A program made the translations under genes and the position numbers. This document shows positions 2,689 through 32,000 of a stretch of 32,000 nucleotides of DNA, piece by piece. The first letter of the stretch is position 1, and each line of letters begins with the position of its first letter. The notes below the pieces were generated by a model. That model was not told the origin of the DNA. It ran no database searches and saw nothing but the letters and a program-made list of their open reading frames with translations. Location of the stretch: positions 1,770,001 to 1,802,000 of the forward strand of contig NZ_CP088239.1 of NCBI RefSeq assembly GCF_021054785.1, given 5' to 3'. This stretch comes from Tannockella kyphosi (GTDB taxonomy: Bacteria; Bacillota_I; Bacilli_A; Erysipelotrichales; Coprobacillaceae).

Positions 2689-3344
2689 TTTAGTATTTCA
2701 TAATTAAATTGTAGAAAATGATCAATGCATTCATTTGCACCATATTCTATTAATGTCTCTGGTAATGCTTCTTTACTAATACCTACAATATAACCTGCTC
2801 CTATTGATTTAGCACAAGTAATACCTGTTTTACTGTCTTCAAAAATAATACAATCTTTTGCATCAACATTCATATCTTTTAATGTAGCTTGATACATTTC
2901 TATTTTTGTTGGATAACTTCCATCATCATAGAACACATGATTTATATCAAAATAGTCTCCTAATGAAAATATATCAAAGAAAAAATCTATATTTTCTTTA
3001 ATAGAAGCACTTGCTATTGTAAAAGGAATCTTGTTTTCCTTTAAATATTGAAACAGTTCAATAGCACCATCTACTAAATGCAACTTATCTGGATTTTCTA
3101 AACAAATAGCACGATAAAGAGCCTCTTTTTGTAACGAATAATATTCATTTTCCAATTCACTTAATTCTGGTTTTAGATTATGAATCGTTTGTGCATTGTT
3201 TGATCCATGTAATCGAATCCGAATTTCATCATTTATTTTGCTACCTGTTATTTCTTTTACAGTCTTTGCCCATGCTATATCATGAAAAGCGGTATCAAAG
3301 AATAATGTCCCATTAAAATCAAAAATCACTGCCTTTACTTTCAT
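2685..3344 (-). CDS. HAD-superfamily hydrolase (beta-phosphoglucomutase/phosphatase-like subfamily IA)
   Basis: Motif I VIFDFNGTLFFDT, motif II TIASAS, motif IV IIFEDSKTGI. 219 aa. Motif I is D-x-N instead of D-x-D. Confidence 0.75.
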   Translation of the reverse strand: MKVKAVIFDFNGTLFFDTAFHDIAWAKTVKEITGSKINDEIRIRLHGSNNAQTIHNLKPELSELENEYYSLQKEALYRAICLENPDKLHLVDGAIELFQYLKENKIPFTIASASIKENIDFFFDIFSLGDYFDINHVFYDDGSYPTKIEMYQATLKDMNVDAKDCIIFEDSKTGITCAKSIGAGYIVGISKEALPETLIEYGANECIDHFLQFNYEILK

Positions 3345-3442
3345 AGTACCTCCCTATAAATCCTCTTATTAATATCCTAGCATATTTAAGAAGGTATCGC
3401 ATCATTAAATTAGATATTCCTTGTTTTAATAAAAAAAGAGTG

Positions 3443-3709
3443 TTAGTCCACTCCCTTTAATAAGCACAATGTATAACACATTAAATAAACTATTTGTGTT
3501 AATATAAATGAAAAAATCATGTGCATAATTTCTACAAAAGGAATAATTGCAGCAATTATCAATAACAATGTCCCAAATACCTTTACTCCTAAATTCAGGT
3601 ATTGAAAATCTTGTATATGAACATTTCCTTTTCTAATAATATATGCATTAATTAAAAATAATAATATTGCTAAAAATAGAACTAAATTTTTTCCTGCTAT
3701 AAACTCCAT
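3443..3709 (-). CDS. Small membrane protein (3 predicted TM segments), unknown function
   Basis: 88-aa ORF, almost entirely hydrophobic helices. SD GGGAGG lies upstream at about 3718..3723. Confidence 0.5.
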   Translation of the reverse strand: MEFIAGKNLVLFLAILLFLINAYIIRKGNVHIQDFQYLNLGVKVFGTLLLIIAAIIPFVEIMHMIFSFILTQIVYLMCYTLCLLKGVD

Positions 3710-3788
3710 TATATTGTCCTCCCGTGACTATTTTAGTATATCATAAAACATCTTATAAGACTTCTTATATAATAAAAAGATACTTCTA

Positions 3789-4442
3789 CTATGAAATATC
3801 TTTTTCTCTGTATTCATGATAACTCATGTATTCTTCACTGATTGTTTTACCAGTAGCTTCAAAGGTAATGATATCAGCAATATTAATTAATTGATAATCA
3901 TCTAAATATGAAAATAAATATATTTTATCTGATTTGAAAACATATCCTAAACATACTATTTCATCTTTGCCATTAATCAAAGCATATTCTTTAAAATCTA
4001 AACAGTAATTTATTAATTCATATATTCCTTTCGAAAAATCAACAGGACCTGCAGGATTATCAATATAAAAATAGTTAGTAACATTTTGTTGATACATCGT
4101 AGTTAGATTAGGTGCTATTAAAGATAGCTTTTGTAATACTTCTTGATTTCTTGGATTTGCAGTAAACGAACGTGCCATATGTAATGCAGTTACTAAATGA
4201 CCAATATCATGAGGAGTAAAAAAAGAATTCGTGAATTTATAATCTTCATCAATATTCACTCCACCACCAGCTCCTTGTTGACAATATACTGGTATTCCAG
4301 CTAATGCTAGACGATCAATATCTCTTTCTATTGTTTTTGTGCTTACTTCAAATTTTTTTGATAATTCTTTATAAGTTGATTTTTTTATTTTTAATAAATG
4401 GATTAGTAATTCTAACTGTCTATTTTTCATTTTTTCTCCCAT
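3789..4442 (-). CDS. HTH-WYL transcriptional regulator (YafY/PafBC-like)
   Basis: N-terminus LELLIHLLKIKKSTYKELSKKFEVSTKTIERDIDRLALAGIPVYCQQGAGGG matches the HTH_11 pattern of YafY-type regulators. C-terminus KIYLFSYLDDYQLINIADIITFE is WYL-like. An alternative start is ATG 4430. Confidence 0.65.
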   Translation of the reverse strand: MGEKMKNRQLELLIHLLKIKKSTYKELSKKFEVSTKTIERDIDRLALAGIPVYCQQGAGGGVNIDEDYKFTNSFFTPHDIGHLVTALHMARSFTANPRNQEVLQKLSLIAPNLTTMYQQNVTNYFYIDNPAGPVDFSKGIYELINYCLDFKEYALINGKDEIVCLGYVFKSDKIYLFSYLDDYQLINIADIITFEATGKTISEEYMSYHEYREKDIS

Positions 4443-4502
4443 TTTCCCTAAATTATTCGTTATTCTACTTCTTGTTTTTTACTTTTATGTGAACTTTCAC
4501 AT

Positions 4503-4529
4503 AAAAAAAAGAAGTTGTTAAACAACTTC
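4503..4529 (-). terminator. Rho-independent terminator of gene 4529..4912
   Basis: Minus strand reads GAAGTTG-tttaa-CAACTTC followed by T8. The stem abuts the stop codon. Confidence 0.65.
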
Positions 4530-4912
4530 TAGTTTTTAGACAAAATCCATTGATAATCTACTTCTTGATCATGATATATTTTAATATCCAAATTAATCTT
4601 ATCCATAATACAACTAAAATACATAATATTATGATCATACATTTCTTCCATGATTTCTACTGTATTAGCTCTTATATGATCCTTTAACTCTTGAAAAGAT
4701 AATTCTTTACGAAATTCCTCTTGATAATAACTAGCTTTTACATGTTGTTTTTCCAATCTTGCAAAAGTTAATACAGCTTTACCAATACGGAATCCCTCCT
4801 CCCCATGATTATGGTTTGTATAACTTTCATCCAATGTTAATTGCATATTGTTTTCTTGATCAAATGATATATTTCTTAAATACATATTATGTAGTGAAAA
4901 CCTTTTTTTCAT
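4529..4912 (-). CDS. Hypothetical cytoplasmic protein (127 aa)
   Basis: ORF with GGAGGA SD 7 nt before ATG 4912, preferred over the track start at 4945. No recognisable motif. Confidence 0.55.
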   Translation of the reverse strand: MKKRFSLHNMYLRNISFDQENNMQLTLDESYTNHNHGEEGFRIGKAVLTFARLEKQHVKASYYQEEFRKELSFQELKDHIRANTVEIMEEMYDHNIMYFSCIMDKINLDIKIYHDQEVDYQWILSKN

Positions 4913-4947
4913 TGTAATATCCTCCTCGCTTCTATAATATAACAAAC

Positions 4948-4974
4948 TAAACTAGACACAGTATGTCTAGTTTA
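4948..4974. repeat. Inverted repeat copy 1: T-AAACTAGACA-cagta-TGTCTAGTTT-A
   Basis: Perfect 11-bp arms. Same arms as copy 2 at 5635..5661. Lies about 36 nt upstream of the start at 4912. Confidence 0.8.
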
Positions 4975-5033
4975 TAAAAAATTGATAAAAATTTTTATTT
5001 TTTCAAAACAAAAAGCAACGTTCCCGTTACTTT

Positions 5034-5219
5034 CTAATACCAAGCATATCCTTGGTTTGATTCTACGTGCATTACATTCATATCTATTTGTTGAATAGAA
5101 TATTCTAATTGTTTATTATAGAAAAATACTGCTGGATTTCCTACTGTAAAACAAACTGCTACCGTAATAACTACTAGCATCATTAATACAAATAATACTC
5201 TTTGCATTTCTATCGTCAT
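5034..5219 (-). CDS. Small single-pass membrane protein (61 aa)
   Basis: One hydrophobic helix (VLFVLMMLVVITVAVCF). Separated by 9 nt from the upstream lipoprotein gene. SD GGGGGA. Confidence 0.45.
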   Translation of the reverse strand: MTIEMQRVLFVLMMLVVITVAVCFTVGNPAVFFYNKQLEYSIQQIDMNVMHVESNQGYAWY

Positions 5220-5228
5220 CGAATCCCC

Positions 5229-5600
5229 CTATTCATCGTTCAAAAGAAAACTGGCAATAGTTGCTCCTTCTTCTATAACGAAATATTCTCGACTTTTATC
5301 TACACCTATTTTATACCCGTACTTTTTTAGTTCCGGACCATTAGTATACTCAAAAGCGACTACATATGTCAATACTTCTTCATAAAGATAACTATATACA
5401 CAGCGACTGATTTTTGCTTCGATCATCTCTTCATTTTCAAACATTCGTTCTAGGTTTTCTTTTGCATATACTTTGGCTTGTTGAGATTGTTTACACAGGT
5501 GCTCTAGATATCCATAACTATCTTCTTTTTCAACCTTATTACATCCCGTTACTCCCGCCAACAATACAACAACTATCAACAAAACCTTTATCAATTTCAC
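5229..5600 (-). CDS. Putative lipoprotein (about 123 aa)
   Basis: From GTG 5600 (SD AAAGGAG 9 nt upstream) the product starts MKLIKVLLIVVVLLAGVTGC, a classical signal peptide with a lipobox Cys. The track start at 5627 is probably too early. Confidence 0.6.
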   Translation of the reverse strand: MKLIKVLLIVVVLLAGVTGCNKVEKEDSYGYLEHLCKQSQQAKVYAKENLERMFENEEMIEAKISRCVYSYLYEEVLTYVVAFEYTNGPELKKYGYKIGVDKSREYFVIEEGATIASFLLNDE

Positions 5601-5634
5601 AATCACCAGCTCCTTTAACACCATCATAACAAAT

Positions 5635-5661
5635 CAAACTAGACACCTTATGTCTAGTTTG
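5635..5661. repeat. Inverted repeat copy 2: C-AAACTAGACA-cctta-TGTCTAGTTT-G
   Basis: Arms identical to copy 1. Lies about 35 nt upstream of the lipoprotein start at 5600. Confidence 0.8.
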
Positions 5662-5768
5662 ACTTTTATTATATAAAAATAGTACAAATAAAAGATACAT
5701 TTCCTCCTAGCGTGCTTGCACCACGCTATAGCCACTTACTTTTTGATTTCTGTAATTCGCTTGGAAGT

Positions 5769-5795
5769 TGAAAAAAGAACGATTTGATCGTTCTT
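5769..5795 (-). terminator. Rho-independent terminator after the Toprim-like gene
   Basis: Minus strand reads AAGAACGAT-caa-ATCGTTCTT followed by TTTTTCAA. It starts about 14 nt after the stop at 5809. Confidence 0.7.
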
Positions 5796-5808
5796 ATAAA
5801 ATGAAATT

Positions 5809-6507
5809 CTAATTTTTTTTACATTTGTTCAAATATATTGCAAAGTTAGAATATCTTTGCAACGAATTAGTCTGAAAAGATATAAACTTCCAACTTTCTT
5901 CGTATTCTCCATGCACCACAATTTCCTTTTGATTGAAAAACTCAATGAATTTAGATGGATTATCCATATAGTCAGACTCAAACTGTTTTGCTAGTTTGTT
6001 TTTATCCTCCATTTTTAAGTTTGCTTCACCATGTAATACATCATCCAAATTACATGAAAAGAAATAAACACTATATGGAATACTATTCCATACTTTTGGC
6101 AAATGAATTAACCTGTTCAAATTTTCCCTTTTTTGTTGATTTCTAATCATTATTCTTTTTACATCATTTGTGTTGATTACATCTTTTTCATAATGAATTT
6201 TACATTCATTTTCAACAATAGCTGTGTCCGGAATATATGCACCATCCATATCTACTAGATGCACTACTTCTAGAAAATCTTTTGGTTTGTATGATTGACC
6301 CTATCTTTCTTTGATAAAATCACCGATTTTACCAACAATATTCGTTGAATTAATTCCTGTTTTAGTTGTTAGGTCTCCGTCCGTCATTTCAAAATGTACT
6401 GAACTGTCCGTTAATATTTTTTCTAAACAAATTGATAGACTCGTCACATCATTTATTCCTTCAACAATAAAAAGAACGATTTTTTTGCTATTAGCCATTG
6501 TTATCAC
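5809..6507 (-). pseudogene. Toprim-like (DUF4435/AriB- or RloB-like) nuclease partner. One reading frame interrupted by a single in-frame TAG at 6301..6303.
   Basis: Track ORFs 6301..6507 and 5809..6264 are in the same frame: ...GDFIKER-TAG-GQSYKPKDFLEVVHLVDMDG... The N-terminus KKIVLFIVEGINDV supplies the Toprim Glu, and LVDMDGAY supplies the DxD. The likely start ATG 6498 overlaps the ATPase stop (ATGGCTAA). Confidence 0.6.
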
Positions 6508-20269: not shown

Positions 20270-21103
20270 TTACTCTTTTGTTATGATAAACTGTTCTATC
20301 GCTAACGCTACACCATCTTGATTATGATGCCCTGTTATATGATCAGCCAATACTTTAACTTCATCAATTGCATTTTCCATAGCAATTGATTTACCTGCAC
20401 AAGCCATCATTTCTATATCATTTTCATTATCTCCAATACAAATAACTTGGCTTAATGGAATATTTAAATAATCAGCTAGTGCTATAACACCTTTCCCCTT
20501 CGTACAACCTTTAATCATGACATCAATATAATCTATATCTGATTTCACTACGTGAAATAAATCAGTTTGATTAAAATCATCTTTAATTTTTTCAAATCTT
20601 TCATGATCTTTTTCTAATATTGATATTTTTACTATTTCACTACTATGTTGTTGTATTAATTCAAAATATTCTTTTCTATTACTTGCAACAATATAGTCAG
20701 CTTTCAAGCTTCCATTTTCTATTTGTGCTTTCCATAAAGGAGGTATATCATAATTTCTAATTGAACGATAAGGAGTATTGAATGTTGCACTTGTTTGGTG
20801 TTTTTCAATAATCTCACAAGCAATATCAACTTGTGTTTTTGTAAAAGAAGAAACACTTACTACCTTATCTTTCGCTATAACTAGTGCCCCATTCAAACAT
20901 ACTGCATAATAATCTAAATTCATTTCATCTAATAAACTTTGAACCGAAACAATTGATCTACCAGATGCAATAGCAACAATCATACCTAAATCACTTACTT
21001 TTTTTAATGCTTCTTTATTAGTTGTTGATACTGATTTATCACTTCTAGCTAATGTTCCATCTACATCTACGCATAATAGCTGATGGTCAAGAGATTCTAC
21101 CAT
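20270..21103 (-). CDS. Cof-type HAD-IIB sugar phosphatase
   Basis: LCVDVDGTL (motif I), ASGRS, GDNENDIEM (motif IV). 277 aa. Overlaps the GH88 gene by 7 nt. Confidence 0.8.
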   Translation of the reverse strand: MVESLDHQLLCVDVDGTLARSDKSVSTTNKEALKKVSDLGMIVAIASGRSIVSVQSLLDEMNLDYYAVCLNGALVIAKDKVVSVSSFTKTQVDIACEIIEKHQTSATFNTPYRSIRNYDIPPLWKAQIENGSLKADYIVASNRKEYFELIQQHSSEIVKISILEKDHERFEKIKDDFNQTDLFHVVKSDIDYIDVMIKGCTKGKGVIALADYLNIPLSQVICIGDNENDIEMMACAGKSIAMENAIDEVKVLADHITGHHNQDGVALAIEQFIITKE

Positions 21104-22233
21104 AATAAAATATCTTTATCCATTAATCTTAAGATTGCTTCCATAAAGAAATAATCTCCATAGATAATAGGTACATGCTTGTCATGATCTGTAAAATAAG
21201 AACCTGATCCCATTTGCACAATAGAATCAAAATTAACATCCCAGTTACAGAATTTTTCATCAGTAGCTCTTAAAATCTTAATTGCAGCATTAACATAAAA
21301 ATCTTTTTCTAACTCATCTACATGTTTCGCAATTTCTAGTAAACCACAAGCTGCGCAAACTCCTGCTGTAGAATCAAAGAATACTGGTTCTTTTGGTGCT
21401 CTAAAATCAATCACAGCTACATTACCTGTTAGGTTAACTTGTGAAAGAAAGTAATGTGCTACTTTTTTAGCAGTATCTAAATATTCTTTATTTTCTGTAT
21501 AGAAATAACTTAAAGCAAATCCATAAATAGCCCAGGCTTGTCCTCTTGACCAAGATGATCCAGAGGCATATCCTTGTCCTGCAGGAGTTTCTAATAAATC
21601 ACCATTTGTAGGATCCAAAGCAATAACATGATTACATGATCCATCTACTCTTACTGTATGTTTCATCACTGTATCAGCATGATCTCTTGCAACATAATCA
21701 AAACGAGGATCTTGAATTTCATCTCTTGCCCAATAAAGCATAGGAATATTCATCATACTATCCACAATAACCCATCCACTACGATCACGATTCCATGAAC
21801 GAATGAATTTCCCTCTAGGATTATATCTACCAGCTAATAAATGAGTAGCATGTAATGCTCTAGCTTTTGATCTTTCATTTCCAGTGATACGATAATTTGC
21901 AACTGCTGAATGTAACCACATAAAACCTACATCATGATGTAAACCAGTATATGTATCAAATGCTTTGTCTAATTTATCTTCCACACGATTGGCAACATCT
22001 TTGTATTTTTCCTCATTTGTAGCGTGATACATTTGCCATAACATCCCAGGCCAAAAACCATTTGTCCACCAGATAATATCAGTTTCTGATTTATCTTCTT
22101 TGTATACTCCATCATTAGCAATATAAGGTATTTTATCGCCTATACGATCGCATTGAGCAGACATTTTATCTTTTATTTTTTCATAAGTTTCTTCTAACCA
22201 CAGTTTGTCAGTAGCATCTATTTTATATTCCAT
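21097..22233 (-). CDS. ugl: Glycoside hydrolase family 88 unsaturated glucuronyl hydrolase
   Basis: WWTNGFWPGMLW, HHDVGFMW and SRGQAWAIYG are GH88/UGL signatures. 378 aa. Confidence 0.85.
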   Translation of the reverse strand: MEYKIDATDKLWLEETYEKIKDKMSAQCDRIGDKIPYIANDGVYKEDKSETDIIWWTNGFWPGMLWQMYHATNEEKYKDVANRVEDKLDKAFDTYTGLHHDVGFMWLHSAVANYRITGNERSKARALHATHLLAGRYNPRGKFIRSWNRDRSGWVIVDSMMNIPMLYWARDEIQDPRFDYVARDHADTVMKHTVRVDGSCNHVIALDPTNGDLLETPAGQGYASGSSWSRGQAWAIYGFALSYFYTENKEYLDTAKKVAHYFLSQVNLTGNVAVIDFRAPKEPVFFDSTAGVCAACGLLEIAKHVDELEKDFYVNAAIKILRATDEKFCNWDVNFDSIVQMGSGSYFTDHDKHVPIIYGDYFFMEAILRLMDKDILLW

Positions 22234-23983
22234 CTTCTAACTCCTTCATTTCTTTTAATTTTATAATTTGATTATTAATAAGTACACTATTTTCTTGATA
22301 CACAATATCTTGATATTCTATTTCATGCGATGGTGAACCATAAATAACACTACCTATTATACCATTTTTTAACGTACCTTCTAATGTAGGTATCGCATTT
22401 ATCTCATAAGAATATATATTTGTATTTGGGTTTTGTTTTACGATATGAGGATTACGATTTTGCATTAAATCTACTATCGCACTATGCATGTCATTTTTAT
22501 AAATTTCTATCCCATTATCAATATTTCTTGCCTTGTCAAACTTATAATTCCAAGAATCAACAGGATAACTTCCTTCATAGGTTTGTAACAAATAAGTAGA
22601 TTGAATTCGATGAATTCGTACATGGCATTGGCCATTAACTGGGATTAACCATGTTTCTATCTTCGCAATCTCTCCATAGTTCCAAACACTATAAATATAC
22701 TCTGATGTAATACGATAATCTTCTATTTTAGTACGACTAGCATACTGGTTTGTTCCTTTCACGGATAACGCTAATGCTTGATCGACTGCAAAATTATCTA
22801 TACCAATTACATCACGAGAAACATTCCACCCAAAGGCACTTGAGTAACAAAATTTACCATACTTGGACATTTGTTGCAAAATACCACCTTTACTATATTG
22901 ACTTGCAGACAACGCATAATGATGATCTTTATCACTAACAAATAACAATCCTGCTTTATCATTACAATGAATAAAATCATAATCACGCTTTGAACATGCT
23001 TTTATTTTCCAAAACATATGATCATCTGGTAATGATAACAAAACAAATGTTTTCATAGCCCACATTTGTGATCCACATGCATTATATTCCTCACTTAATA
23101 CTAAATTAGGATAACCGTATCCTACTTCACATAGATCTTCTTTTTGAAACCACAAATTTAAATGATCAAAAATTAATCCTTTTATTTTTTCTATTTCTAA
23201 TTCATGTATACCACTAACAATACAAGCACTCCAATAACTAATATGTCCATATCGATAAGTTAAACTTCTTCCAAAAGGAAGGCTTCTTCCTTCTTTATCA
23301 AACCAGTATCGAAAATCTCGTTCAAATGCAATACTTCTGTTCTTTACATCTAAGTTAAAATCAGGACAGTATCTTTTTAAGATATGACTATAAAAATGAA
23401 AAGCAAAAGAGATATAATAATCTAGTTGACTTGTATCTCCATCTCGATACCAACCACCACCTATATACATCTCTTCAATCCCTTCCAGTGCCTCATCAAT
23501 ACGTGTTTGACTGTAGGTCATACAATTCATTTTTAAACCATAATTAACCATTAATGAAAAAAATAACCAGTTATTTTTAGGCAGTTCTATTTCATTAATC
23601 GAATACAACCATTCTTCTAGATATTGCTTTTGTTCCTCATTAAAACAGGTAAGCAATTTCTCTTTACAACATAATAACCCATATCCATAAACTGCCATCT
23701 CAACTGCAATTTGTCTTGTTTTCGTTGTAGGTTTTAAAAACTTATGTTCACTTTCTTGATTGAATCCTAATTTCATTTGTTCTATATAAGGCATGATGAT
23801 ATCCTGATACTTCTCTTGGTCATTTATCATTAATGAAAAAATAGCCCAAAGCGGCCTAGAACGATACTCTAATTCACGGATACCCAATGAATAACTAGCC
23901 CCATGTTTTTCATGATATACTAAAGGATCTGGTAATGTTTTTTTTATAAATGTGATTAAACTTTCTTTCGTAAATGATTCCAT
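22223..23983 (-). CDS. DUF2264-like / heparinase II-III-like accessory protein of GAG loci
   Basis: 586-aa cytoplasmic protein overlapping ugl by 11 nt. RPLWAIF, GGGWYRDG and FGRSLTYRY patterns recall DUF2264. The family assignment is from memory only. Confidence 0.45.
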   Translation of the reverse strand: MESFTKESLITFIKKTLPDPLVYHEKHGASYSLGIRELEYRSRPLWAIFSLMINDQEKYQDIIMPYIEQMKLGFNQESEHKFLKPTTKTRQIAVEMAVYGYGLLCCKEKLLTCFNEEQKQYLEEWLYSINEIELPKNNWLFFSLMVNYGLKMNCMTYSQTRIDEALEGIEEMYIGGGWYRDGDTSQLDYYISFAFHFYSHILKRYCPDFNLDVKNRSIAFERDFRYWFDKEGRSLPFGRSLTYRYGHISYWSACIVSGIHELEIEKIKGLIFDHLNLWFQKEDLCEVGYGYPNLVLSEEYNACGSQMWAMKTFVLLSLPDDHMFWKIKACSKRDYDFIHCNDKAGLLFVSDKDHHYALSASQYSKGGILQQMSKYGKFCYSSAFGWNVSRDVIGIDNFAVDQALALSVKGTNQYASRTKIEDYRITSEYIYSVWNYGEIAKIETWLIPVNGQCHVRIHRIQSTYLLQTYEGSYPVDSWNYKFDKARNIDNGIEIYKNDMHSAIVDLMQNRNPHIVKQNPNTNIYSYEINAIPTLEGTLKNGIIGSVIYGSPSHEIEYQDIVYQENSVLINNQIIKLKEMKELEDGI

Positions 23984-24007
23984 ACGATACCTCCAACATA
24001 AGAAAAT

Positions 24008-24032
24008 AGAAGGTTAACATTGTTAACCTTCT
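24008..24032 (-). other. Perfect 12-bp intercistronic stem-loop inside the PTS-hydrolase operon
   Basis: AGAAGGTTAACA-t-TGTTAACCTTCT, between the IID stop (24044) and the next start (23983). On the minus strand it is followed by ATTTTCTTATG, a weak T-tract. Confidence 0.5.
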
Positions 24033-24043
24033 TTGATTAGTGA

Positions 24044-24895
24044 TTATCCACAAATTCCTAACAATGTTAGAACAACTGAAGCTATGAACATAATAACAAG
24101 CAATTTAACTGGATTGTTATGTTTACGTAAATAGACGAATGCTGCCATTGTAATTCCAAGTGGTAACATACCTGGTAAAATTGAATCTAATACAGTTTGT
24201 AAAACAAATGTTGTTTCACCAAAATCTGCAGCAAATGTAGTTGTAAAACTAACATATTGTGCTGTCATAGCTCCTGTCATGATTAATCCCATTATTGAGA
24301 AACCTTTTGTAAAAGCTGTAATAGCACCAGATTCTAATGCTTGTGAAATAAATGAAGTACCTACTTTAAATCCATAATATGTTGCAAAATAACGGATTAA
24401 TAAGTTTGGTATATTGAATACAAGTAAGAATAAGATTGGTCCTAACCATGAACCACTTTGTGAAAATCCAATTGCAACACCAATTGCAATAATTCTTAAA
24501 GCACCAACAAAGATAGAATCTCCAATCCCTGCTAAAGGTCCCATTAACGCTACTTTGATTGATTCAATTGCAGCATCATCAAATTCTTTACCATTATCTA
24601 AAGCTGCTTTTCTTTCTTGTTCCATTGCAATTACAAGAGCGAAAATAAATGGTGACATACCTGGTGTTGTGTTAAAGAAGTTTTGATGTCTTGCCATTGA
24701 TGCATAGAATTCATCTGTTTCTTTTCCATAAATATCTTCTAAGTAAGGAATCATTGTCCATGCAAATGTTGTCCCTTGTTGTTTTGTATAAGATGTACAG
24801 AACATTAACCACATTGATCTTGTGAATACTGAACGTATTAATTTATTTTCTTGTTTTGTTAAACCTGTGCTTTTATTCTCTGTTAGACTAGTCAT
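24044..24895 (-). CDS. PTS mannose/sorbose/N-acetylgalactosamine-family EIID
   Basis: Typical IID N-terminus (LTKQENKLIRSVFTRSMWLMFCTSYTKQQG). ATG 24895 follows GAAGGAGGGGA and overlaps the IIC stop (ATGACTAG). Confidence 0.85.
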   Translation of the reverse strand: MTSLTENKSTGLTKQENKLIRSVFTRSMWLMFCTSYTKQQGTTFAWTMIPYLEDIYGKETDEFYASMARHQNFFNTTPGMSPFIFALVIAMEQERKAALDNGKEFDDAAIESIKVALMGPLAGIGDSIFVGALRIIAIGVAIGFSQSGSWLGPILFLLVFNIPNLLIRYFATYYGFKVGTSFISQALESGAITAFTKGFSIMGLIMTGAMTAQYVSFTTTFAADFGETTFVLQTVLDSILPGMLPLGITMAAFVYLRKHNNPVKLLVIMFIASVVLTLLGICG

Positions 24896-25748
24896 TGAAA
24901 AAATCCCCTCCTTCATCATTACTTACCCCTGCTACTTTATTACTATTTTCTTTAATTTTTCTTAATTCTCCAAAGATAACTAATGCAGCAATAGCAGCAC
25001 CAATAAATGCAATTTGTACTAAAGAAAATACTTTTGTAGATGAACTTGTTAATTCTACAGCACCATCAACAAGTGTTGCAGCTGTTGTATTATTGTAGAA
25101 TACGAAAGCTCCAAGTCCAAATCCTAAGAAATAATAAGGACATGTTTCTTTTTGCCATAATGTTTTTAATAATAAAGCTAACCCAAGTGCAGGTAACATA
25201 GCAGAAGCTACAGTCATTGAACTTTGTACCCATGCTGGAATTGCATTAATAAATGCTGATACTACATCTGTTCCTAAATAGATACATAAGAACCCTAATG
25301 TAAAATAACAACCATGGAATGCTATGAATTGAGCAATCCATAAATTTTTATATGCTTTGATATTTTTTTCATCGATATATCTTTCAAATGTAGCAACGAT
25401 TGAAGTAACAACAACTTTCATTGAAGAATATAACAATGTTCCTAATGCTGCAAGTGGCAATGCAAGAGTAACAGCAGCTGTTAAGTCTTCTCCTAATAAA
25501 AGTGCAAATGCAGCACCGAAGATTGATCCCAATGTGAAGTCACTTGGCATTACACCACCTAAACTTACATTTCCGATAAATACTAATTCTAATTGAGCTG
25601 CTAATATAATACCTTCTGTTGGATATCCTAAAAGCGCCCCTAATATTGATACGATAAAGATTGGTCTACTTAACTGAGTTTGACAATACCAATCTAAAAA
25701 CTTAGCTAAAGCTAATACAAAACCTACAATTAATGCATTTGTAATCAT
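24888..25748 (-). CDS. PTS mannose-family EIIC
   Basis: 286-aa polytopic protein placed between IIB and IID. Man-family IIC pattern. Confidence 0.8.
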   Translation of the reverse strand: MITNALIVGFVLALAKFLDWYCQTQLSRPIFIVSILGALLGYPTEGIILAAQLELVFIGNVSLGGVMPSDFTLGSIFGAAFALLLGEDLTAAVTLALPLAALGTLLYSSMKVVVTSIVATFERYIDEKNIKAYKNLWIAQFIAFHGCYFTLGFLCIYLGTDVVSAFINAIPAWVQSSMTVASAMLPALGLALLLKTLWQKETCPYYFLGFGLGAFVFYNNTTAATLVDGAVELTSSSTKVFSLVQIAFIGAAIAALVIFGELRKIKENSNKVAGVSNDEGGDFFND

Positions 25749-25749
25749 T

Positions 25750-26244
25750 TTAATTTCCTCCCATTAGTTCTTTAAATTTTTGACAATTACTACTTGGTAG
25801 TGGTTGGTGAATGATATCAATACCACATTCAAGAATTTCATTTACTACTTTAATATCTTCCTCTGTTAAATAAACAGATTCAGCAATTCTAGTTTTGCTT
25901 GATAAACTTTTACTTCCAATTCTTCCATAATTCGCAATATTTAATATTGGTTTGTCATCAATTAATTTAATGACTTCTAATAAATCTTTTGGATCATTTG
26001 AAATTACTAAGATCTTCATACTTGCAGATCTAGGATCTTTCAAAATCTCAGCTGCTTTGACAATTGGCAAGGCTACAGCTTTAACACCTGCAGGAGCAGC
26101 CATTTTTAAGGCACTCACTTGAATTGTATTACTTGCAATTTTATCACTAGCAACAATAATTCTTTGAATCTCTAATTCTTTTGACCACATCACGGCAACT
26201 TGCCCATGAATCAAACGGTCGTCAACGCGCATCATTGAAATCAT
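25750..26244 (-). CDS. PTS mannose/sorbose-family EIIB
   Basis: MISMMRVDDRLIHGQVAVMW carries the phospho-His motif of sorbose-type IIB. SD AGGAGG. Confidence 0.85.
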   Translation of the reverse strand: MISMMRVDDRLIHGQVAVMWSKELEIQRIIVASDKIASNTIQVSALKMAAPAGVKAVALPIVKAAEILKDPRSASMKILVISNDPKDLLEVIKLIDDKPILNIANYGRIGSKSLSSKTRIAESVYLTEEDIKVVNEILECGIDIIHQPLPSSNCQKFKELMGGN

Positions 26245-26255
26245 CTTTTTTCCTC

Positions 26256-26678
26256 CTAAAAAAAATCTTCATCATCAACTTGATCATTTGTTTCAATCTT
26301 TGAAATTTGGACTATCCCTTCTTTACAAAGATTAATTTTCTCATTGATTTGATCATCACTCATTGGTGCTGGAGCAAATAATAATTCAATTACTAACCCC
26401 ATGTTCATACCACTTACTAATTTAACATTAGGAAGTTCTAACAATGGAATGCATCCGTTACCAACACTCCCTCCGTATAAATCTGAAACAACAACATACT
26501 GTACGTTTGGATTGTCTGTCGCCATTTTTTCAATTTGATCGCTAACCACTGAGTCGTGTTCTCCTGGCATCATACTTAAAGATAGTAGTGATTCGTTTTC
26601 GCCAATAATCATTTTTAAGGAATGCGCCATTCCTTTACATAATTCTCCGTGCGATACCAAAACAACATTCTTTTTCAT
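26256..26678 (-). CDS. PTS mannose-family EIIA
   Basis: VVLVSHGELCKGM (active-site His near the N-terminus). 140 aa. SD AAGGAGG. Confidence 0.8.
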   Translation of the reverse strand: MKKNVVLVSHGELCKGMAHSLKMIIGENESLLSLSMMPGEHDSVVSDQIEKMATDNPNVQYVVVSDLYGGSVGNGCIPLLELPNVKLVSGMNMGLVIELLFAPAPMSDDQINEKINLCKEGIVQISKIETNDQVDDEDFF

Positions 26679-26701
26679 AAAAACCTCCTTTTTTCGTTAG
26701 T

Positions 26702-26713
26702 AAATCGGTTTAC
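26702..26713. promoter_or_regulatory. Operator-like site AAATCGGTTTAC in the PTS operon leader
   Basis: One mismatch from AAACCGGTTTAC at 26897..26908. Lies between the predicted -10 (26724..26729) and the RBS of EIIA. Confidence 0.5.
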
Positions 26714-26723
26714 CGGTAGTTCC

Positions 26724-26752
26724 ATCATACATCTAAGTGTAACCGTTGTCAA
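26724..26752 (-). promoter_or_regulatory. Sigma-A type promoter of the PTS/GH88 operon
   Basis: Minus strand reads TTGACA-17 nt-TATGAT (-35 at 26752..26747, -10 at 26729..26724), about 45 nt upstream of the EIIA ATG. Confidence 0.6.
26738..26751. promoter_or_regulatory. Catabolite-responsive element (cre, CcpA site)
   Basis: TGTAACCGTTGTCA fits TGWAANCGNTNWCA at every constrained position. It overlaps the -35/spacer of the PTS promoter. Confidence 0.6.
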
Positions 26753-26890
26753 TACTGATTTCAATTCTTTTGTTAAAATTTTCATTTATTTATTTAAGCC
26801 TATTTTGTATACACAAAGGTATATTTTAAACAATATATGGGTATTTAAGGCTATATATATCCTATTTTTGTTTAAAAATATTTTTATTTA

Positions 26891-26919
26891 TTGACAAAAC
26901 CGGTTTACTGAATTATTAT
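26891..26919 (+). promoter_or_regulatory. Sigma-A type promoter of the kduD-dhuI-kdgK-eda operon, with an embedded operator-like site
   Basis: TTGACA-17 nt-TATTAT. The spacer starts with AAACCGGTTTAC (26897..26908; 10-bp perfect palindrome AAACCGGTTT). Confidence 0.6.
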
Positions 26920-27023
26920 TAGTTATGTAGCTTGGTTGGTTATTAACGAATTGTTTATTAACATCCATAGCCTTTTATAAATTGTTATAAAATATAATAA
27001 AACAATAGAAATGGAGAAAGAAA

Positions 27024-27830
27024 ATGAACTTTGATATGAATAAATTTTCCTTGAATGGGAAAATAGCACTAGTAACTGGTGCATCGTATGGTATTGGTTT
27101 CTCACTTGCATGTGGCTTATCCCAAGCAGGTGCTACCGTTGTTTTCAATGATATTAACCAAGAATTAGTGGACAAAGGAATTGTTGCATATACAGCATTA
27201 GGAATTAATGCTCGTGGATTTGTTTGCGATGTTACTGATGAACAAAAGGTAAATGAAATGGTTAGTACGATCGAAAAAGAAATCGGTGTAATTGATATTC
27301 TTGTGAATAATGCAGGTATTATCAAACGAATCCCAATGTGTGAAATGAGTGCTGAAGATTTTAGAAAAGTGATAGATGTTGATTTAAATGCACCATTTAT
27401 TGTTGCAAAAGCAGTTATCCCATCAATGATTAAAAAAGGGAATGGAAAGATTATTAACCTTTGTTCTATGATGAGTGAATTAGGACGTGAAACAGTGAGT
27501 GCTTATGCCGCTGCTAAAGGTGGTCTTAAAATGTTAACAAAAAATATTGCATCAGAGTATGGGGAATTCAACATTCAATGTAATGGTATTGGTCCTGGAT
27601 ATATCGCAACTCCTCAAACTGCACCACTTAGAGAATTGCAAGAAGACGGAAGTAAACATCCATTTGATCAGTTTATTGTAGGAAAAACTCCTGCAGCTAG
27701 ATGGGGAGACCCTGAAGATTTAGTAGGTCCTGCTGTATTTTTAGCTAGTGAGGCTAGTGATTTTGTAAATGGACATATTTTATATGTAGATGGCGGGATT
27801 TTAGCCTATATCGGAAAACAACCAAAATAA
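27024..27830 (+). CDS. kduD: SDR-family 2-dehydro-3-deoxy-D-gluconate 5-dehydrogenase / DhuD-like reductase
   Basis: TGASYGIG cofactor motif and YAAAK catalytic motif. 268 aa. SD GGAGA. First gene of the uronate-catabolism operon. Confidence 0.8.
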   Translation: MNFDMNKFSLNGKIALVTGASYGIGFSLACGLSQAGATVVFNDINQELVDKGIVAYTALGINARGFVCDVTDEQKVNEMVSTIEKEIGVIDILVNNAGIIKRIPMCEMSAEDFRKVIDVDLNAPFIVAKAVIPSMIKKGNGKIINLCSMMSELGRETVSAYAAAKGGLKMLTKNIASEYGEFNIQCNGIGPGYIATPQTAPLRELQEDGSKHPFDQFIVGKTPAARWGDPEDLVGPAVFLASEASDFVNGHILYVDGGILAYIGKQPK

Positions 27831-27844
27831 GGAGAAAGAATATT

Positions 27845-28480
27845 ATGAAAATAGCTTTAATTAACGAAAATAGTCAAGCAGCAAAAAACAGTATTGTTTA
27901 TAATTGTTTACATACTGTTGCACAAAAAAAAGGATATGAAGTTTATAATTATGGAATGTATGGTATTGAAAATGAAAGTCAATTAACTTATGTACAAAAT
28001 GGTTTATTAGCAGCAATTTTATTAAATTCAAAAGCAGTTGATTTTGTAGTAACTGGATGTGGAACGGGTGCCGGAGCAATGGTTGCATTAAACAGCTTCC
28101 CAAATGTAGTTTGTGGTTTTGCAGCAGAACCAACTGATGCTTATCTTTTTTCACAAATCAATGGAGGGAATGCAATTTCTATTCCTTATGCAAAAGGTTT
28201 TGGATGGGGTGCTGAATTAAATTTAGAATTATTATTCACTCGTTTATTTGATGAACCAATGGGTGGTGGATATCCTAAAGAAAGAGTAATACCAGAACAA
28301 CGTAATGCTCGTATTTTAAATGAAGTGAAAAACATTACACACCGTGATATGTTAACTATTTTAAAAGAAATTGATCAAGATTTCTTAAAAGAAACTGTTG
28401 CTGGAGAAAAATTCCAAACTTATTTCTTTGAAAATTGTCAAGTACAAGAAATAGCTGATTATATCAAAGGTATCTTATAA
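27845..28480 (+). CDS. dhuI: RpiB/LacA/LacB-family isomerase (streptococcal DhuI-type 4-deoxy-L-threo-5-hexosulose-uronate isomerase)
   Basis: 211 aa. MKIALINENSQAAKN...VTGCGTGAGAM...GGNAISIPYAKGFGWGAEL matches my recollection of DhuI. Its position next to kduD/kdgK/eda fits. Confidence 0.7.
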   Translation: MKIALINENSQAAKNSIVYNCLHTVAQKKGYEVYNYGMYGIENESQLTYVQNGLLAAILLNSKAVDFVVTGCGTGAGAMVALNSFPNVVCGFAAEPTDAYLFSQINGGNAISIPYAKGFGWGAELNLELLFTRLFDEPMGGGYPKERVIPEQRNARILNEVKNITHRDMLTILKEIDQDFLKETVAGEKFQTYFFENCQVQEIADYIKGIL

Positions 28481-28495
28481 CATCAAACAATACTA

Positions 28496-28524
28496 AAAAG
28501 GTTATCTCACGATAACCTTTTTTA
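28496..28524 (+). terminator. Intra-operon stem-loop + T-tract between dhuI and kdgK
   Basis: AAAAGGTTATC-tcac-GATAACCTTTT followed by TT. Confidence 0.55.
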
Positions 28525-28540
28525 CAAGAAAGGAATTAGT

Positions 28541-29542
28541 ATGTCTAAAATATTATTATTTGGTGAGCCATTAATCCGTATTAGTCCAACCAATTATCAA
28601 TTGATTGGGGATAAGATGAATACGATGATGTATTATGGTGGTTCAGAAATTAACATTGCTAAAAATTTACAAGGATTACATATCATGACTAAAGTTTTTA
28701 CTGGACTTCCTAAAAATCCTATTGGAGAAAGTTTTTGTCAATATCTAAATCAATATCAAATTGATACTTCAAATATCCAATGGGTTGGAAATCGTGTTGG
28801 ATTATATTATCTAGAAGAGGGAGTCGGTTGTCGTCAAAGTGAAGTATACTACGATCGTAAGAACACAAGTATAGATGATATCGATATAGATACGCTTGAT
28901 ATGGATGCTTTATTTGAAGGAATTACTCATTTCCATTTTAGCGGCATTACAATTGCAGTATCTGTGCATGTACAAAACGTATTGGAATTGTTACTGATAG
29001 AAGCTAAAAAAAGAAACATTATAATTAGTATTGATTTAAATCTTCGTACAAAAATGATTTCTATTGAAGATGCTAAGAATCTATTTTCTAAGTTTGCTAG
29101 ATATGCGAATATTTGCTTTGGAATTGATCCAATAAAAGCGAATGAAAAAGATATAACTATGTTTGATCGATACAATGCATCAACAGATACTATTGAAAAA
29201 CGTATGCGTGAATTAAAAGAAGAGTATGCATTTGATGTCATTTTCCATACTATTAGAACAACAGATGAAAATGCTAGAAACGTTTATCAATGTTATGGTT
29301 TAAGCAATACATTTAAAGAGTCTATCTCATTGAAAACAGATGTGCTTCAACGCATTGGTAGTGGAGATGCTTTTGTTGCAGGAGCTCTATATAAAATAAT
29401 AAACCAATCACCCTTGCAAGAAACAATTGACTTTGCAGTGGCATCCGGCACCTATAAATGTACTGTTGATGGTGATAACATGAACGTTGACGCTTTAAAA
29501 ATTGACCAATTATTACATCAAAAACAAGATATTAATCGATAA
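28541..29542 (+). CDS. kdgK: PfkB-family 2-dehydro-3-deoxygluconokinase
   Basis: 333 aa. Ribokinase-like with C-terminal GSGDAFVAG. Context between dhuI and eda. Confidence 0.75.
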   Translation: MSKILLFGEPLIRISPTNYQLIGDKMNTMMYYGGSEINIAKNLQGLHIMTKVFTGLPKNPIGESFCQYLNQYQIDTSNIQWVGNRVGLYYLEEGVGCRQSEVYYDRKNTSIDDIDIDTLDMDALFEGITHFHFSGITIAVSVHVQNVLELLLIEAKKRNIIISIDLNLRTKMISIEDAKNLFSKFARYANICFGIDPIKANEKDITMFDRYNASTDTIEKRMRELKEEYAFDVIFHTIRTTDENARNVYQCYGLSNTFKESISLKTDVLQRIGSGDAFVAGALYKIINQSPLQETIDFAVASGTYKCTVDGDNMNVDALKIDQLLHQKQDINR

Positions 29543-29555
29543 AGGAGAAAATTTT

Positions 29556-30182
29556 ATGCATAAATTAGATGTATTATCAACATTAAGAAAACAAAAAGTT
29601 GTCGTAGTTGTTAGAGGCGATACCCAAGAAGAAGGGATAAATACTGCTATTGCTTGTATTGAAGGTGGCATTAAATCAATAGAAGTAGCTTATACTAACA
29701 GTAACGCTAGTAGCATTATAAAAGACCTAACAAAACAATATAAACAAGATATTGATGTTTGTATTGGTGCTGGAACTGTATTAGATGCCCCTACTGCAAA
29801 AGATGCGATTATGGCTGGAGCACAATATATTGTATCTCCAAGTTTTAACCTTGAAACAGCAATACTATGCAATCGCTATGCCATCCCTTATATTCCAGGA
29901 TGTATGACAATTACAGAAATTGTAACAGCTATGGAGAGCGGATCTAAAGTAATTAAATTATTTCCAGGTAGTGCCTTTTCACCAAAGTACATTAGTGCTA
30001 TTAAATCACCCCTACCACATGTTAGTATTATGGTTACAGGTGGTGTCAGCCTTGATAATGCCAAAGAGTGGTTTGATGCAGGAGTTGAAGTGATTGGAAT
30101 TGGTGGAGAGTTAAATACTTTAGCTAAAAAAGGTGATTTCGAAAAAATCACTGATTATGCTAGAATGTATGCTTCTTTATAA
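29556..30182 (+). CDS. eda: KDPG/KHG aldolase
   Basis: ATG 29556 follows AAAGGAGAA. Motifs VVVVRG, IEVAY, GAGTVL, and VIKLFPG (the expected position of the Schiff-base Lys). The track start at 29502 is rejected. Confidence 0.85.
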   Translation: MHKLDVLSTLRKQKVVVVVRGDTQEEGINTAIACIEGGIKSIEVAYTNSNASSIIKDLTKQYKQDIDVCIGAGTVLDAPTAKDAIMAGAQYIVSPSFNLETAILCNRYAIPYIPGCMTITEIVTAMESGSKVIKLFPGSAFSPKYISAIKSPLPHVSIMVTGGVSLDNAKEWFDAGVEVIGIGGELNTLAKKGDFEKITDYARMYASL

Positions 30183-30191
30183 ATAAGACTC

Positions 30192-30228
30192 AAAGGATTG
30201 TTTTGCATATGCAAAGCAATCCTTTTTT
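30192..30228. terminator. Bidirectional terminator between eda and the convergent DUF3791-like gene
   Basis: AAAGGATTGTTTTGCA-tat-GCAAAGCAATCCTTT (one G-U position) followed by TTT. Confidence 0.75.
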
Positions 30229-30235
30229 AGAATAA

Positions 30236-30721
30236 CTATTTATTTTCTCTGATTTTTTTAAAAATTTCATACTGCTTTTCCATTGTCTGTGTTTCGTTCA
30301 TCTGCAATCCTTTTGCTTCTAAAATACGCTCTATTGCTTGAGCTGGACTTAGTGTATGATAAGCAAAAAACAATTCCCGTAGTTCCTTTGGTTTTACAAT
30401 CTTATACACCTTTAATGAGGATAGTTCATAAGTATAAGAAAAATATCTATATAAATAACCTGTCCAGAACATTTCATCTTTTGAGTATTTCACTGAACCA
30501 TAATCAGTAGGAATATATTCTTCTTCTACTAATACATTAATGTCCTTAGCACGTATATTTGTTTCTAAAATACTTCCGTTATCTAATCTTTTCACACTTT
30601 TGCTATTCATAAATCTGCGAATAAATATCAAAGAACTACACATTAATTGGTTAACAGATTCCTCAAATGCATTCCCTTGTAATTCACACAAAAGCAAACC
30701 ATCTCTATCCATTTTCTTCAT
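30236..30721 (-). CDS. Hypothetical protein (161 aa), C-terminal half DUF3791-like
   Basis: SD GGTGG 5 nt before the ATG, 17 nt after the upstream stop. WTGYLYRYFSYTYELSSLKVYKIV...LFFAYHTLSPAQAIERI resembles the DUF3791 pattern (x-YK..., LHT...I..DI) that usually partners DUF3990. From memory only. Confidence 0.45.
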   Translation of the reverse strand: MKKMDRDGLLLCELQGNAFEESVNQLMCSSLIFIRRFMNSKSVKRLDNGSILETNIRAKDINVLVEEEYIPTDYGSVKYSKDEMFWTGYLYRYFSYTYELSSLKVYKIVKPKELRELFFAYHTLSPAQAIERILEAKGLQMNETQTMEKQYEIFKKIRENK

Positions 30722-30738
30722 ATTTCCACCTTTATTTC

Positions 30739-31593
30739 TTATTTAAACATTTCGTCAATATACATTCCTTTTCCTCTATAACTAATTTTTGCCAATTTCA
30801 CTTTATCTAAACCTAGTTTAGTCTCCGCTCTTCTGATTTTATTATAATATTCCCTTTCACTTTGACACATGTATACTCGCTCTAACATCCTCACCTGTGA
30901 AATAGCTTTCTCACTAATAAAAACATACTGTTTTCCTAAATTAGTAGCTGCTAAAGAATGTTGACACTGCTCCACCGTAATTTCTCCTTGAACAAAAGAA
31001 TCAATTATTTGAAACATTCTATTATCAGCTATAGGAGCTATAATATAGTCACATTCTCTTGCATGTTTAATAATCTCTCTTACTATTTTATGATCCTTAT
31101 ACTCCTCTAAAGCTCCCCTATAATAAGCTATCGCCATCATCCACTCTTGATCCACAATATATTCCTTCGCCTTTAGACCATTCCTATTAAAATCTAAAAA
31201 ATATACAGAAGAATTATCATATCCAGATACAAATGATACAGCTTGTTCATAGGTTTCCCCTGTATAAAAGCCACTCCCAAAATCATTATTTGATCTTCCA
31301 ACACAAATACTTAATTCACCATTCACTATATTTTTAGATCCATGAAATAATAATTGATGATTTTTCTCTTTCTTCTCTTGCCAAAACATTTCTTTTAAGC
31401 GATTTAATTGGATTCCTTTATTAAAAGCAAACTCATATAATTTCTCCATAAATTGTGCGGAGGGCTTTGTTTTTTGAATCTCACTTCTTGAAATTGTTAC
31501 CTGTTCTACATTTATCAACTCAGCCAACTCAGCTTGCGTCAACCCTAAAAGTTCTCGTACTGCACGTAAATCTTCTGCAAACTTATATTCCAT
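30739..31593 (-). CDS. XRE-family HTH fused to a DUF3990 domain (ADP-ribosyltransferase-like fold)
   Basis: N-terminus LRAVRELLGLTQAELAELINVEQVTISRSE (HTH_3). Then LLFHGS, DFGSGFYTGE, DYIIAPIADNRMF and QYVFISEKA, the DUF3990 hallmark blocks. SD GGGAG. Confidence 0.7.
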   Translation of the reverse strand: MEYKFAEDLRAVRELLGLTQAELAELINVEQVTISRSEIQKTKPSAQFMEKLYEFAFNKGIQLNRLKEMFWQEKKEKNHQLLFHGSKNIVNGELSICVGRSNNDFGSGFYTGETYEQAVSFVSGYDNSSVYFLDFNRNGLKAKEYIVDQEWMMAIAYYRGALEEYKDHKIVREIIKHARECDYIIAPIADNRMFQIIDSFVQGEITVEQCQHSLAATNLGKQYVFISEKAISQVRMLERVYMCQSEREYYNKIRRAETKLGLDKVKLAKISYRGKGMYIDEMFK

Positions 31594-31614
31594 GTAATCA
31601 CTCCCTTTTATAAC

Positions 31615-31696
31615 TTATTTATATCACATTACTTAAACAAGTTCAACTTAAACTTCTTTATATCATATTACTTAAATAAGTTTAGATAAAACTTTC
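31615..31696. repeat. Two tandem direct repeats of period 39 bp upstream of the HTH-DUF3990 gene
   Basis: 31615..31653 and 31654..31692 are identical at 32 of 39 positions. The 26-nt core TTTATATCAYATTACTTAAAYAAGTT has 2 mismatches. Starts 22 nt upstream of ATG 31593. Confidence 0.8.
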
Positions 31697-31930: not shown

Positions 31931-32000
31931 TTAATAGACAGAAGACAACAAGTAGAAAAACGGGGCAAATAATGTATCAAACCTGACAATCGAAATGCAA

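Follow-up and report, generated by a model that had tools for sequence, protein, structure and literature searches.

The window, i.e., the whole stretch of 32,000 nt of Tannockella kyphosi NZ_CP088239.1 analysed here, harbours two open reading frames (ORFs), A and B, which together make up the cassette under study. A and B form a fixed, co-inherited two-gene cassette with B as the obligate downstream partner of A. As read from the sequence, the cassette has the layout of an operon composed of a putative promoter/operator, A, B, and a probable terminator hairpin. We give an even chance to the reading that A and B constitute a self-contained, horizontally mobile, and autoregulated operon of the type II toxin-antitoxin or abortive-infection-like kind, with the DUF3990 domain of A as the effector and B as its neutraliser. 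The features of the locus are as follows.

30739..31593, minus strand: gene A, 284 aa, with matches to Pfam HTH_3 and DUF3990, both above the gathering cutoffs
30236..30721, minus strand: gene B, 161 aa, all-helical partner, plausibly a divergent DUF3791 relative
31612..31643, minus strand: putative proximal operator O1, overlapping the promoter-like element; the whole feature covers 31612..31646
31651..31682, minus strand: putative distal operator copy O2 (AACTTATTTAAGTAATATGATATAAAGAAGTT), an exact match to the family 32-mer pattern
31646..31641 (-35 TTGAAC) and 31623..31618 (-10 TATAAA), minus strand: promoter-like element with a 17-nt spacer containing TG
31601..31605, minus strand: Shine-Dalgarno sequence GGGAG of gene A, 7 nt 5' of the ATG, read directly from the sequence
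30726..30732, minus strand: Shine-Dalgarno sequence AAGGTGG of gene B, within the 17-nt gap between A and B, read directly from the sequence
30192..30225, no strand assigned: stem-loop between the convergent stop codons of B and of a 2-keto-3-deoxy-6-phosphogluconate (KDPG) aldolase gene

The coordinates of both ORFs and the gap between them are exactly those of the original prediction, which had been made from the letters of the window and had proposed a toxin-antitoxin-like or defence-like pair. In a genome scan with one genome per species, relatives of A were found in 435 genomes, and the best 80 loci were examined. B is located immediately downstream of A and on the same strand in 79 of these 80 loci, which bears out the co-conservation of the downstream ORF; in the remaining locus, the contig ends 11 nt past A. 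The gaps between A and B mostly measure 14-50 nt. Clustering of all ORFs revealed no third recurrent gene among the 80 loci. Furthermore, the distance matrices of A and B correlate with r = 0.82, a value that was reached by none of 999 Mantel permutations.

Hosts of the cassette are Erysipelotrichaceae, Lachnospiraceae, Oscillospiraceae, Anaerovoracaceae, Anaerovibrio, Mogibacterium, and one metagenome-assembled genome of the Spirochaetaceae. The neighbours vary by genome and include housekeeping genes, an Rhs/YD toxin, PIN, IMS/YolD together with an integrase, Schlafen-AlbA_2, and AbiEii together with MazE. Such a pattern of hosts and neighbours is that of a small cassette which has changed its genomic setting repeatedly. 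Two adjacent, co-directional, and co-conserved small genes in variable settings, by which type II toxin-antitoxin systems are recognised, are found here. A regulatory module of a prophage or of an integrative and conjugative element was considered and rejected, since no neighbour is common to the 80 loci and base composition is flat over the region, with a uniform GC content of ~0.30; the prophage interpretation is weakened as well by phage records, which gave only four weak matches, restricted to DUF3990. In one Lachnospiraceae-type lineage (L085, L086, and L087; locus coordinates 3160..5925), the cassette is situated directly 3' of an Rhs/YD-shell gene and three small unannotated ORFs, an arrangement that resembles a polymorphic-toxin/immunity array.

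The region upstream of A is occupied by a tandem repeat (31612..31694, period 39 nt, 2.1 copies), in accordance with the tandem repeats that had been noticed right upstream of the gene in the original prediction. For its analysis, 130 nt upstream of A were aligned for 78 loci, and copies were counted over 79 loci. The alignment contains a single sharply conserved block with the consensus TTGAACTTGTTTAAGTAATATGATATAAATAAGTT, followed by GAGGTG, which in related loci takes the position equivalent to the Shine-Dalgarno sequence of gene A. Of the 32 positions of the proximal copy, 26 are conserved to at least 90% in the 78 loci, with encoded proteins that are just ~60% identical. Conservation of the operator amounts to 89-93%, compared to a majority-base frequency of 0.36 in the DNA further upstream. 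The strict 32-mer pattern obtained from the repeat has two matches in the window, O1 and O2 only, versus 0 expected from 100 shuffles. Two operator copies are present in 55 of the 79 loci, one in 16, and three in 6; their spacing is mostly 39 or 36 nt, and in most loci the distal copy is situated 36-39 nt upstream of the proximal one.

The two copies differ from each other. TTG precedes the proximal copy only (seen in 64 loci), giving rise to a TTGAAC -35 hexamer 17 nt before TATAAA; O2 is devoid of a -35 hexamer because no TTG stands in front of it. Positions 1-18 and 28-32 of the distal copy are as conserved as those of the proximal copy, and positions 19-26, which correspond to the -10 part, are relaxed. 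A perfect 32-bp palindrome (AACTTGTTTAAGTAAT|ATTACTTAAACAAGTT) is formed by the distal copy of several loci. These perfect distal palindromes and the pattern of conservation suggest that the operator is a palindrome of the 16-nt half-site AACTTGTTTAAGTAAT. To judge from its sequence, the proximal copy is an operator/promoter hybrid. Due to the overlap of the proximal copy with the promoter-like hexamers, we infer that the conserved repeat is a putative operator at which A would repress its own expression by means of its helix-turn-helix (HTH) domain, and the architecture of the autoregulated type that had been envisaged in the original prediction fits with this promoter-overlapping operator.

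Operator copy number ranges from one to at least three between lineages; in L067 (Anaerovibrio lipolyticus DSM 3074), three near-identical tandem operator-promoter units are located upstream of A. Covariation of operator positions 6 and 27, as a candidate for co-evolving specificity, was marginal (57 observed versus 45 expected) and was not used.

At the opposite end of the cassette, the stem-loop between the convergent stop codons has an RNA fold energy of -16.3 kcal/mol with z = -4.15, which was equalled by none of 200 shuffles. It was not called by a simple terminator scan. Probably it represents a bidirectional terminator that ends the A-B operon.

A bona fide XRE-type HTH combined with a conserved operator would be in line also with an ordinary, non-toxic transcription factor that regulates host genes. 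In this case DUF3990 would bind a ligand, e.g., NAD+ or ADP-ribose, B would be an accessory protein, and the ADP-ribosyltransferase (ART)-like domain could be catalytically silent. Within the window, however, the operator pattern occurs only before the cassette itself, and the neighbours are unrelated between genomes. Presence in distant families together with unrelated neighbourhoods is typical of selfish or defence cassettes, and a plain regulator of this kind is considered highly unlikely.

Protein A is composed of an XRE-type HTH (residues ~5-58), a linker helix, DUF3990 (residues 82-235), and a conserved basic C-terminal tail (residues ~240-284). Both domains named in the original prediction exceed their Pfam cutoffs: HTH_3 (PF01381) matches residues 9-52 with an E-value of 4.7e-8 and 33.4 bits (gathering cutoff 23), and DUF3990 (PF13151) matches residues 82-235 with an E-value of 3.9e-29 and 101.7 bits (cutoff 32.2), the latter match spanning profile positions 3-151 of 152. 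The DUF3990 cutoff is passed by all 27 aligned homologues of A as well. All motifs quoted at that stage are present, i.e., LLFHGS (81-86), GSGFYTGE (106-113), DYIIAPIADNRMF (182-194), and QYVFISEKA (222-230). A comparison of the A family profile with PDB sequences gave HTH matches including HipB, CylR2, SinR, and the 434 and P22 repressors. In the recognition region of the HTH, V29, T33, S35, R36, and E38 are invariant throughout the homologue alignment.

The database contains 2906 homologues of A. The best 120 of them are all ~284 aa in length, 61-69% identical with full-length coverage, occur in gut Firmicutes, and are named just "DUF3990 domain-containing protein". The original prediction had regarded the DNA-binding domain as something that this DUF3990 gene had acquired for itself. 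The HTH is indeed present, but in a large family the fusion of HTH and DUF3990 is the rule, and it is no peculiarity of the window locus. Within the HTH coding region, a perfect 9-nt direct repeat (CAACTCAGC in two copies, 31516..31533) encodes AEL-AEL and is probably trivial.

DUF3990 is assigned to the ART clan of Pfam (PMC7955679), as had been stated in the original prediction, and the C-terminal toxin domain of the Serratia Rhs5 effector is a DUF3990 domain (PMC4524185). Over three DUF3990 sub-architectures, residues H84, G85, D104, G106, G108, F109, Y110, A118, D182, A189, and Q222 are invariant. The H...Y...D/Q pattern sits at predicted strand ends; in the model of A, D182 directly precedes the predicted strand 183-187 and Q222 lies inside the predicted strand 221-225. 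Non-HTH Foldseek matches of A are led by ART folds, which we treat as suggestive only. The top match is 9r35 chain A, which derives from an Xre-RES complex (Xre or RES protein; E 0.02), and the top 11 also comprise PARP10, PARP15, CARDS toxin, and Arr with E-values of 0.2-0.9. Sequence searches of the PDB with A and with the A family profile returned no more than HTH proteins, and in Pfam A matched neither the RES domain nor DarT (DUF4433). No paper studying the function of DUF3990 was found in the literature searched. An ART fold is plausible for DUF3990.

The AlphaFold model of B consists of ten helices with a predicted local distance difference test (pLDDT) score of 87.7. Foldseek comparison of this model with PDB and BFVD yielded no match below E = 1.7, and B has no PDB sequence match and no Pfam, NCBIfam, or PHROG match. 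In the original prediction B had been described as a DUF3791-like partner. B of the window does not belong to DUF3791 (PF12668; gathering cutoff 25 bits) by the Pfam measure, as a match is missing even at E<=1, and none was obtained among 28 close homologues of B either. Ten of 75 diverse relatives of B match DUF3791 below threshold (best E 6.6e-4), with any other family being matched by two members at most. An hhalign comparison of B with an alignment of long DUF3791 proteins (P = 0.005, probability 7%) pairs the conserved YHTLdP..AIERI of B with MLHTQD..ILDTI of the latter. What stands of the earlier description is that B is plausibly a divergent and extended relative of DUF3791. As had been pointed out, B is situated after and not before the DUF3990 gene and is longer than DUF3791 (161 aa versus a Pfam domain of 60 residues); given the canonical order of DUF3791 followed by DUF3990, B lies on the opposite side of the DUF3990 gene.

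Relatives of B were collected in 770 clusters by profile search. W86, G88, Y89, Y91, R92, H122, D47, and S40 are near-invariant in the whole family. About one fifth of the B-family representatives listed have a C-terminal extension; among the 34 long representatives, this extension is GNAT-like in 15, an ASCH domain in 3, and another C-terminal domain lacking a name in 9. Going by these extensions, it is suggested that B can carry variable enzymatic modules. In locus L095, a B-GNAT gene is located directly 3' of the HTH-DUF3990 gene. B-GNAT proteins are P0359, P0318, P0278, P0272, and P0270, and B-ASCH proteins are P0313, P0304, and P0267. Some homologues of B bear the NCBI name "antitoxin"; a search for its origin found neither an NCBIfam model nor a paper.

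The same modules are arranged differently in Collinsella, in Subdoligranulum, and in a faecal phage-like scaffold. DUF3990 with the C-terminal tail is followed there by a protein of ~215 aa, which comprises a B-like N-terminal half (hhalign of B versus the Collinsella partner, E 1.3e-4) and HTH_3 at its C-terminal end. P0319 is an HTH-B fusion. HTH, DUF3990-with-tail, and B are thus modules that always travel together, with the HTH on either partner. By analogy, the HTH-bearing B-like protein of the rearranged form is laid out like a classical antitoxin.

A and B match the PADLOC models PDC-M42A (E 1.1e-8) and PDC-M42B (E 1.1e-7), respectively. The DUF3990 protein of Collinsella matches PDC-M42A at 1.7e-36 and its partner matches PDC-M42B. 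The PDC-M42 cassette is given as FAM_00403 (DUF3990), FAM_03189, and FAM_00360, in this order (Payne et al., bioRxiv 2024, supplementary file 8). Like the cassette of the window, it encodes DUF3990 extended by a C-terminal tail and, next in order, a partner resembling B. In contrast, its HTH forms the C-terminal end of this partner or, presumably, is encoded by the separate third gene, and is not N-terminal on DUF3990 as in the window. Moreover, PDC-M42 comprises three genes versus two here, with no third gene recurring in the 80 loci, the matches of the window proteins to the M42 models are weak, and PDC-M42 itself is a candidate. FAM_00403 is common to PDC-M10, M13, and M42 (Payne et al., bioRxiv 2024, supplement), all of which were catalogued as candidates on account of their being embedded within known defence systems; the counts in supplementary file 8 are 339, 257, 112, and 72. 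The experimental tests in that study concern HEC-01 to HEC-09, with the PDC entries being candidates (Payne et al., bioRxiv 2024).

These matches bring up a dedicated phage-defence system instead of an addiction pair, with B as a sensor of infection and A as an effector that would be released from DNA or from B. Besides the correspondence of A and B to PDC-M42, relatives of DUF3990 define PDC-M10 and PDC-M13, some neighbours of the cassette are AbiEii, PIN, Schlafen-AlbA_2, or Rhs genes, and the C-terminal modules on B differ among relatives. However, only HEC-01 to HEC-09 have been put to the test, and in the window as well as in several other loci the cassette stands alone among housekeeping genes. 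This explanation overlaps the favoured one, with the trigger being the sole difference, and as a separate case it is considered rather unlikely.

The pairing of DUF3990 with DUF3791, mentioned in the original prediction, occurs on plasmids of Bacteroides and Segatella. There, the canonical operon comprises DUF3791, then DUF3990 (~160 aa, without HTH and without tail), then a small ORF, and corresponds to the PADLOC candidate PDC-M13. As seen in Bacteroides fragilis pBF9343 and a Segatella copri plasmid, it shares with the window cassette the invariant HG[ST], D[FY]GxGFY, D, and Q of DUF3990 and a small helical partner family that is plausibly a distant relation of B. It differs in the upstream position of the partner, in a DUF3990 that lacks HTH and tail, and in the third small gene. 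In case of L092 (B. fragilis pBF9343, NC_006873.1 23193..24400), the DUF3791-DUF3990 pair is situated just upstream of a small ORF overlapping a zeta-toxin family gene; this conjugative plasmid thus has two adjoining toxin-like modules.

In Xre-RES/ParST/MbcTA systems, autorepression takes place via inverted repeats at more than one promoter site (PMC12204516). They resemble the cassette in combining an XRE HTH with an ART-clan toxin domain, but the HTH and the toxin are separate and the HTH protein is the antitoxin. In the window cassette, HTH and DUF3990 are on one polypeptide and the partner is the unrelated B, which sets it apart from Xre-RES. In DarT/DarG systems, which are linked to toxin-antitoxin function and phage defence, the gene of the ART toxin comes first and that of the partner second. 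The window cassette has the same order, with an ART-like gene first and the partner second. Unlike DarG, which is defined by a modification-removing macrodomain, B is all-helical, and unlike DarT, which lacks an HTH, A carries one; neither A nor B matches Macro or DarT, so that the cassette does not qualify as DarTG. The DarT/DarG analogy of the original prediction therefore fails on the macrodomain partner. Its more general claim of a toxin-antitoxin-like or defence-like pair receives partial support from co-conservation, variable settings, the promoter-overlapping putative operator, the PDC-M42 matches, the "antitoxin" name of B homologues, and DUF3990 at the tip of an Rhs toxin.

In the favoured toxin-antitoxin or abortive-infection-like reading, A, probably as a dimer or higher oligomer, would bind the operators via its HTH and repress its own operon. 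DUF3990 would be a growth-inhibiting effector that uses NAD+ to modify or to deplete a cellular or phage target; the basis for this role is the Pfam ART clan and the invariant H84, Y110, and D182 (or Q222). B would bind DUF3990, perhaps via the conserved C-terminal tail of A, and hold it inactive, and it may double as a co-repressor. Once B is lost, titrated, or inactivated, e.g., by phage infection or loss of the cassette, the effector would be freed.

Several points weigh against this reading. DNA binding is typically a property of the antitoxin, and not of the toxin, in type II systems. The O1 site was not listed by a promoter scan because its -10 hexamer ends in A, without the final T, and the promoter was read by eye. 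The full-length model of A has a pLDDT of only 64.6, its Foldseek comparison with the PDB gave no match at E<=1e-3 (best E 0.02), and a profile restricted to DUF3990 gave nothing among PDB sequences at E<=10. A sub-threshold Pfam PARP match in A recurs in one of 27 homologues and was dropped as evidence. Of the ART likeness claimed in the original prediction, the H and Y motifs are confirmed and are invariant, but the match in fold is weak. The third catalytic residue of DUF3990 would be D182 or Q222, an ambiguity that arises because both are invariant. The polar residues D47, R92, and H122 of B are conserved above what is usual for a simple binding antitoxin, and in combination with the GNAT- and ASCH-bearing relatives they indicate that B might itself be an enzyme or a carrier of effectors. 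Finally, in the inspected loci the cassette was observed alone or beside small toxin-antitoxin/Abi genes, and never inside a large known defence system.

A rival reading is a reversed polarity, in which the toxic or effector role falls to B, or in relatives to B together with the GNAT or ASCH domain fused to it, and A is an antitoxin and repressor with a neutralising or sensing DUF3990. The first, DNA-binding gene of classical type II modules encodes the antitoxin, and the polar constellation of S40, D47, Y89, Y91, R92, and H122 in B points to an active site or a site for ligand binding. Toxins of the GNAT class are known, and the GNAT-like C-terminal domain is present in ~15 of the 34 long B representatives, one of these fusions being encoded right after an HTH-DUF3990 gene. 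Nevertheless, DUF3990 is found at the tip of an Rhs toxin and in a toxin-rich clan, and its invariant H, Y, and D motifs suit an enzyme over a mere binder. The rearranged form carries its HTH on the B-like protein, and the same logic would make B the antitoxin there; the NCBI name "antitoxin" of B homologues likewise speaks against the reversal. We consider a reversal of roles clearly unlikely.

It is tempting to speculate that A is both a repressor and an active NAD+-dependent enzyme which is gated by B with a previously unseen all-helical fold, that B, as part of the DUF3791 superfamily, represents a new class of ART neutralisers, and that the cassette serves for abortive infection against phages in gut Firmicutes. 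As a whole, we assign a similarly low probability to this more specific version as to the reversed polarity. Within it, B may possibly reverse the modification by means of D47, R92, and H122 and would then take the functional role of the DarG macrodomain in spite of a fold unrelated to it.

Both DUF3990 and DUF3791 are widespread, uncharacterised domains. The form with the fused HTH is present in hundreds of species of gut Firmicutes, and thousands of metagenome proteins represent it. The cassette provides a compact and testable anatomy of one promoter, a 32-bp operator, two genes, and candidate catalytic residues. Its function, once shown, would annotate PDC-M10, M13, and M42 together, would extend to the Rhs toxin domain, and might bring to light an ART neutraliser of a new kind. 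Should A prove toxic, it would be an uncommon case of a toxin, rather than an antitoxin, that bears the DNA-binding domain of the operon.

An RNA element in the region was considered and rejected, due to the lack of an Rfam match at E<=0.1 and of a tRNA. Four independent metagenome contigs (loci L081, L082, L083, and L084) encode an identical A and all stop 229 nt upstream of A, which corresponds to position ~31822 of the window. Because the four contigs stop at one point, repeat or strain-variable DNA is suggested past ~31822, with the window ending at 32000; no tRNA or Rfam element was found near this position.

The cassette of the window is surrounded by an ordinary catabolic cluster for sugar acids with a phosphotransferase system (PTS). 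The genes at 21097..30182 represent a coherent locus for the use of unsaturated uronate or glycosaminoglycan, apparently unrelated to the cassette. They encode GH88, DUF2264, IIA-IID of a mannose-family PTS, SDR, an RpiB/LacAB-like isomerase with DUF3666, a PfkB kinase of the 2-keto-3-deoxygluconate (KDG) type, and KDPG aldolase.

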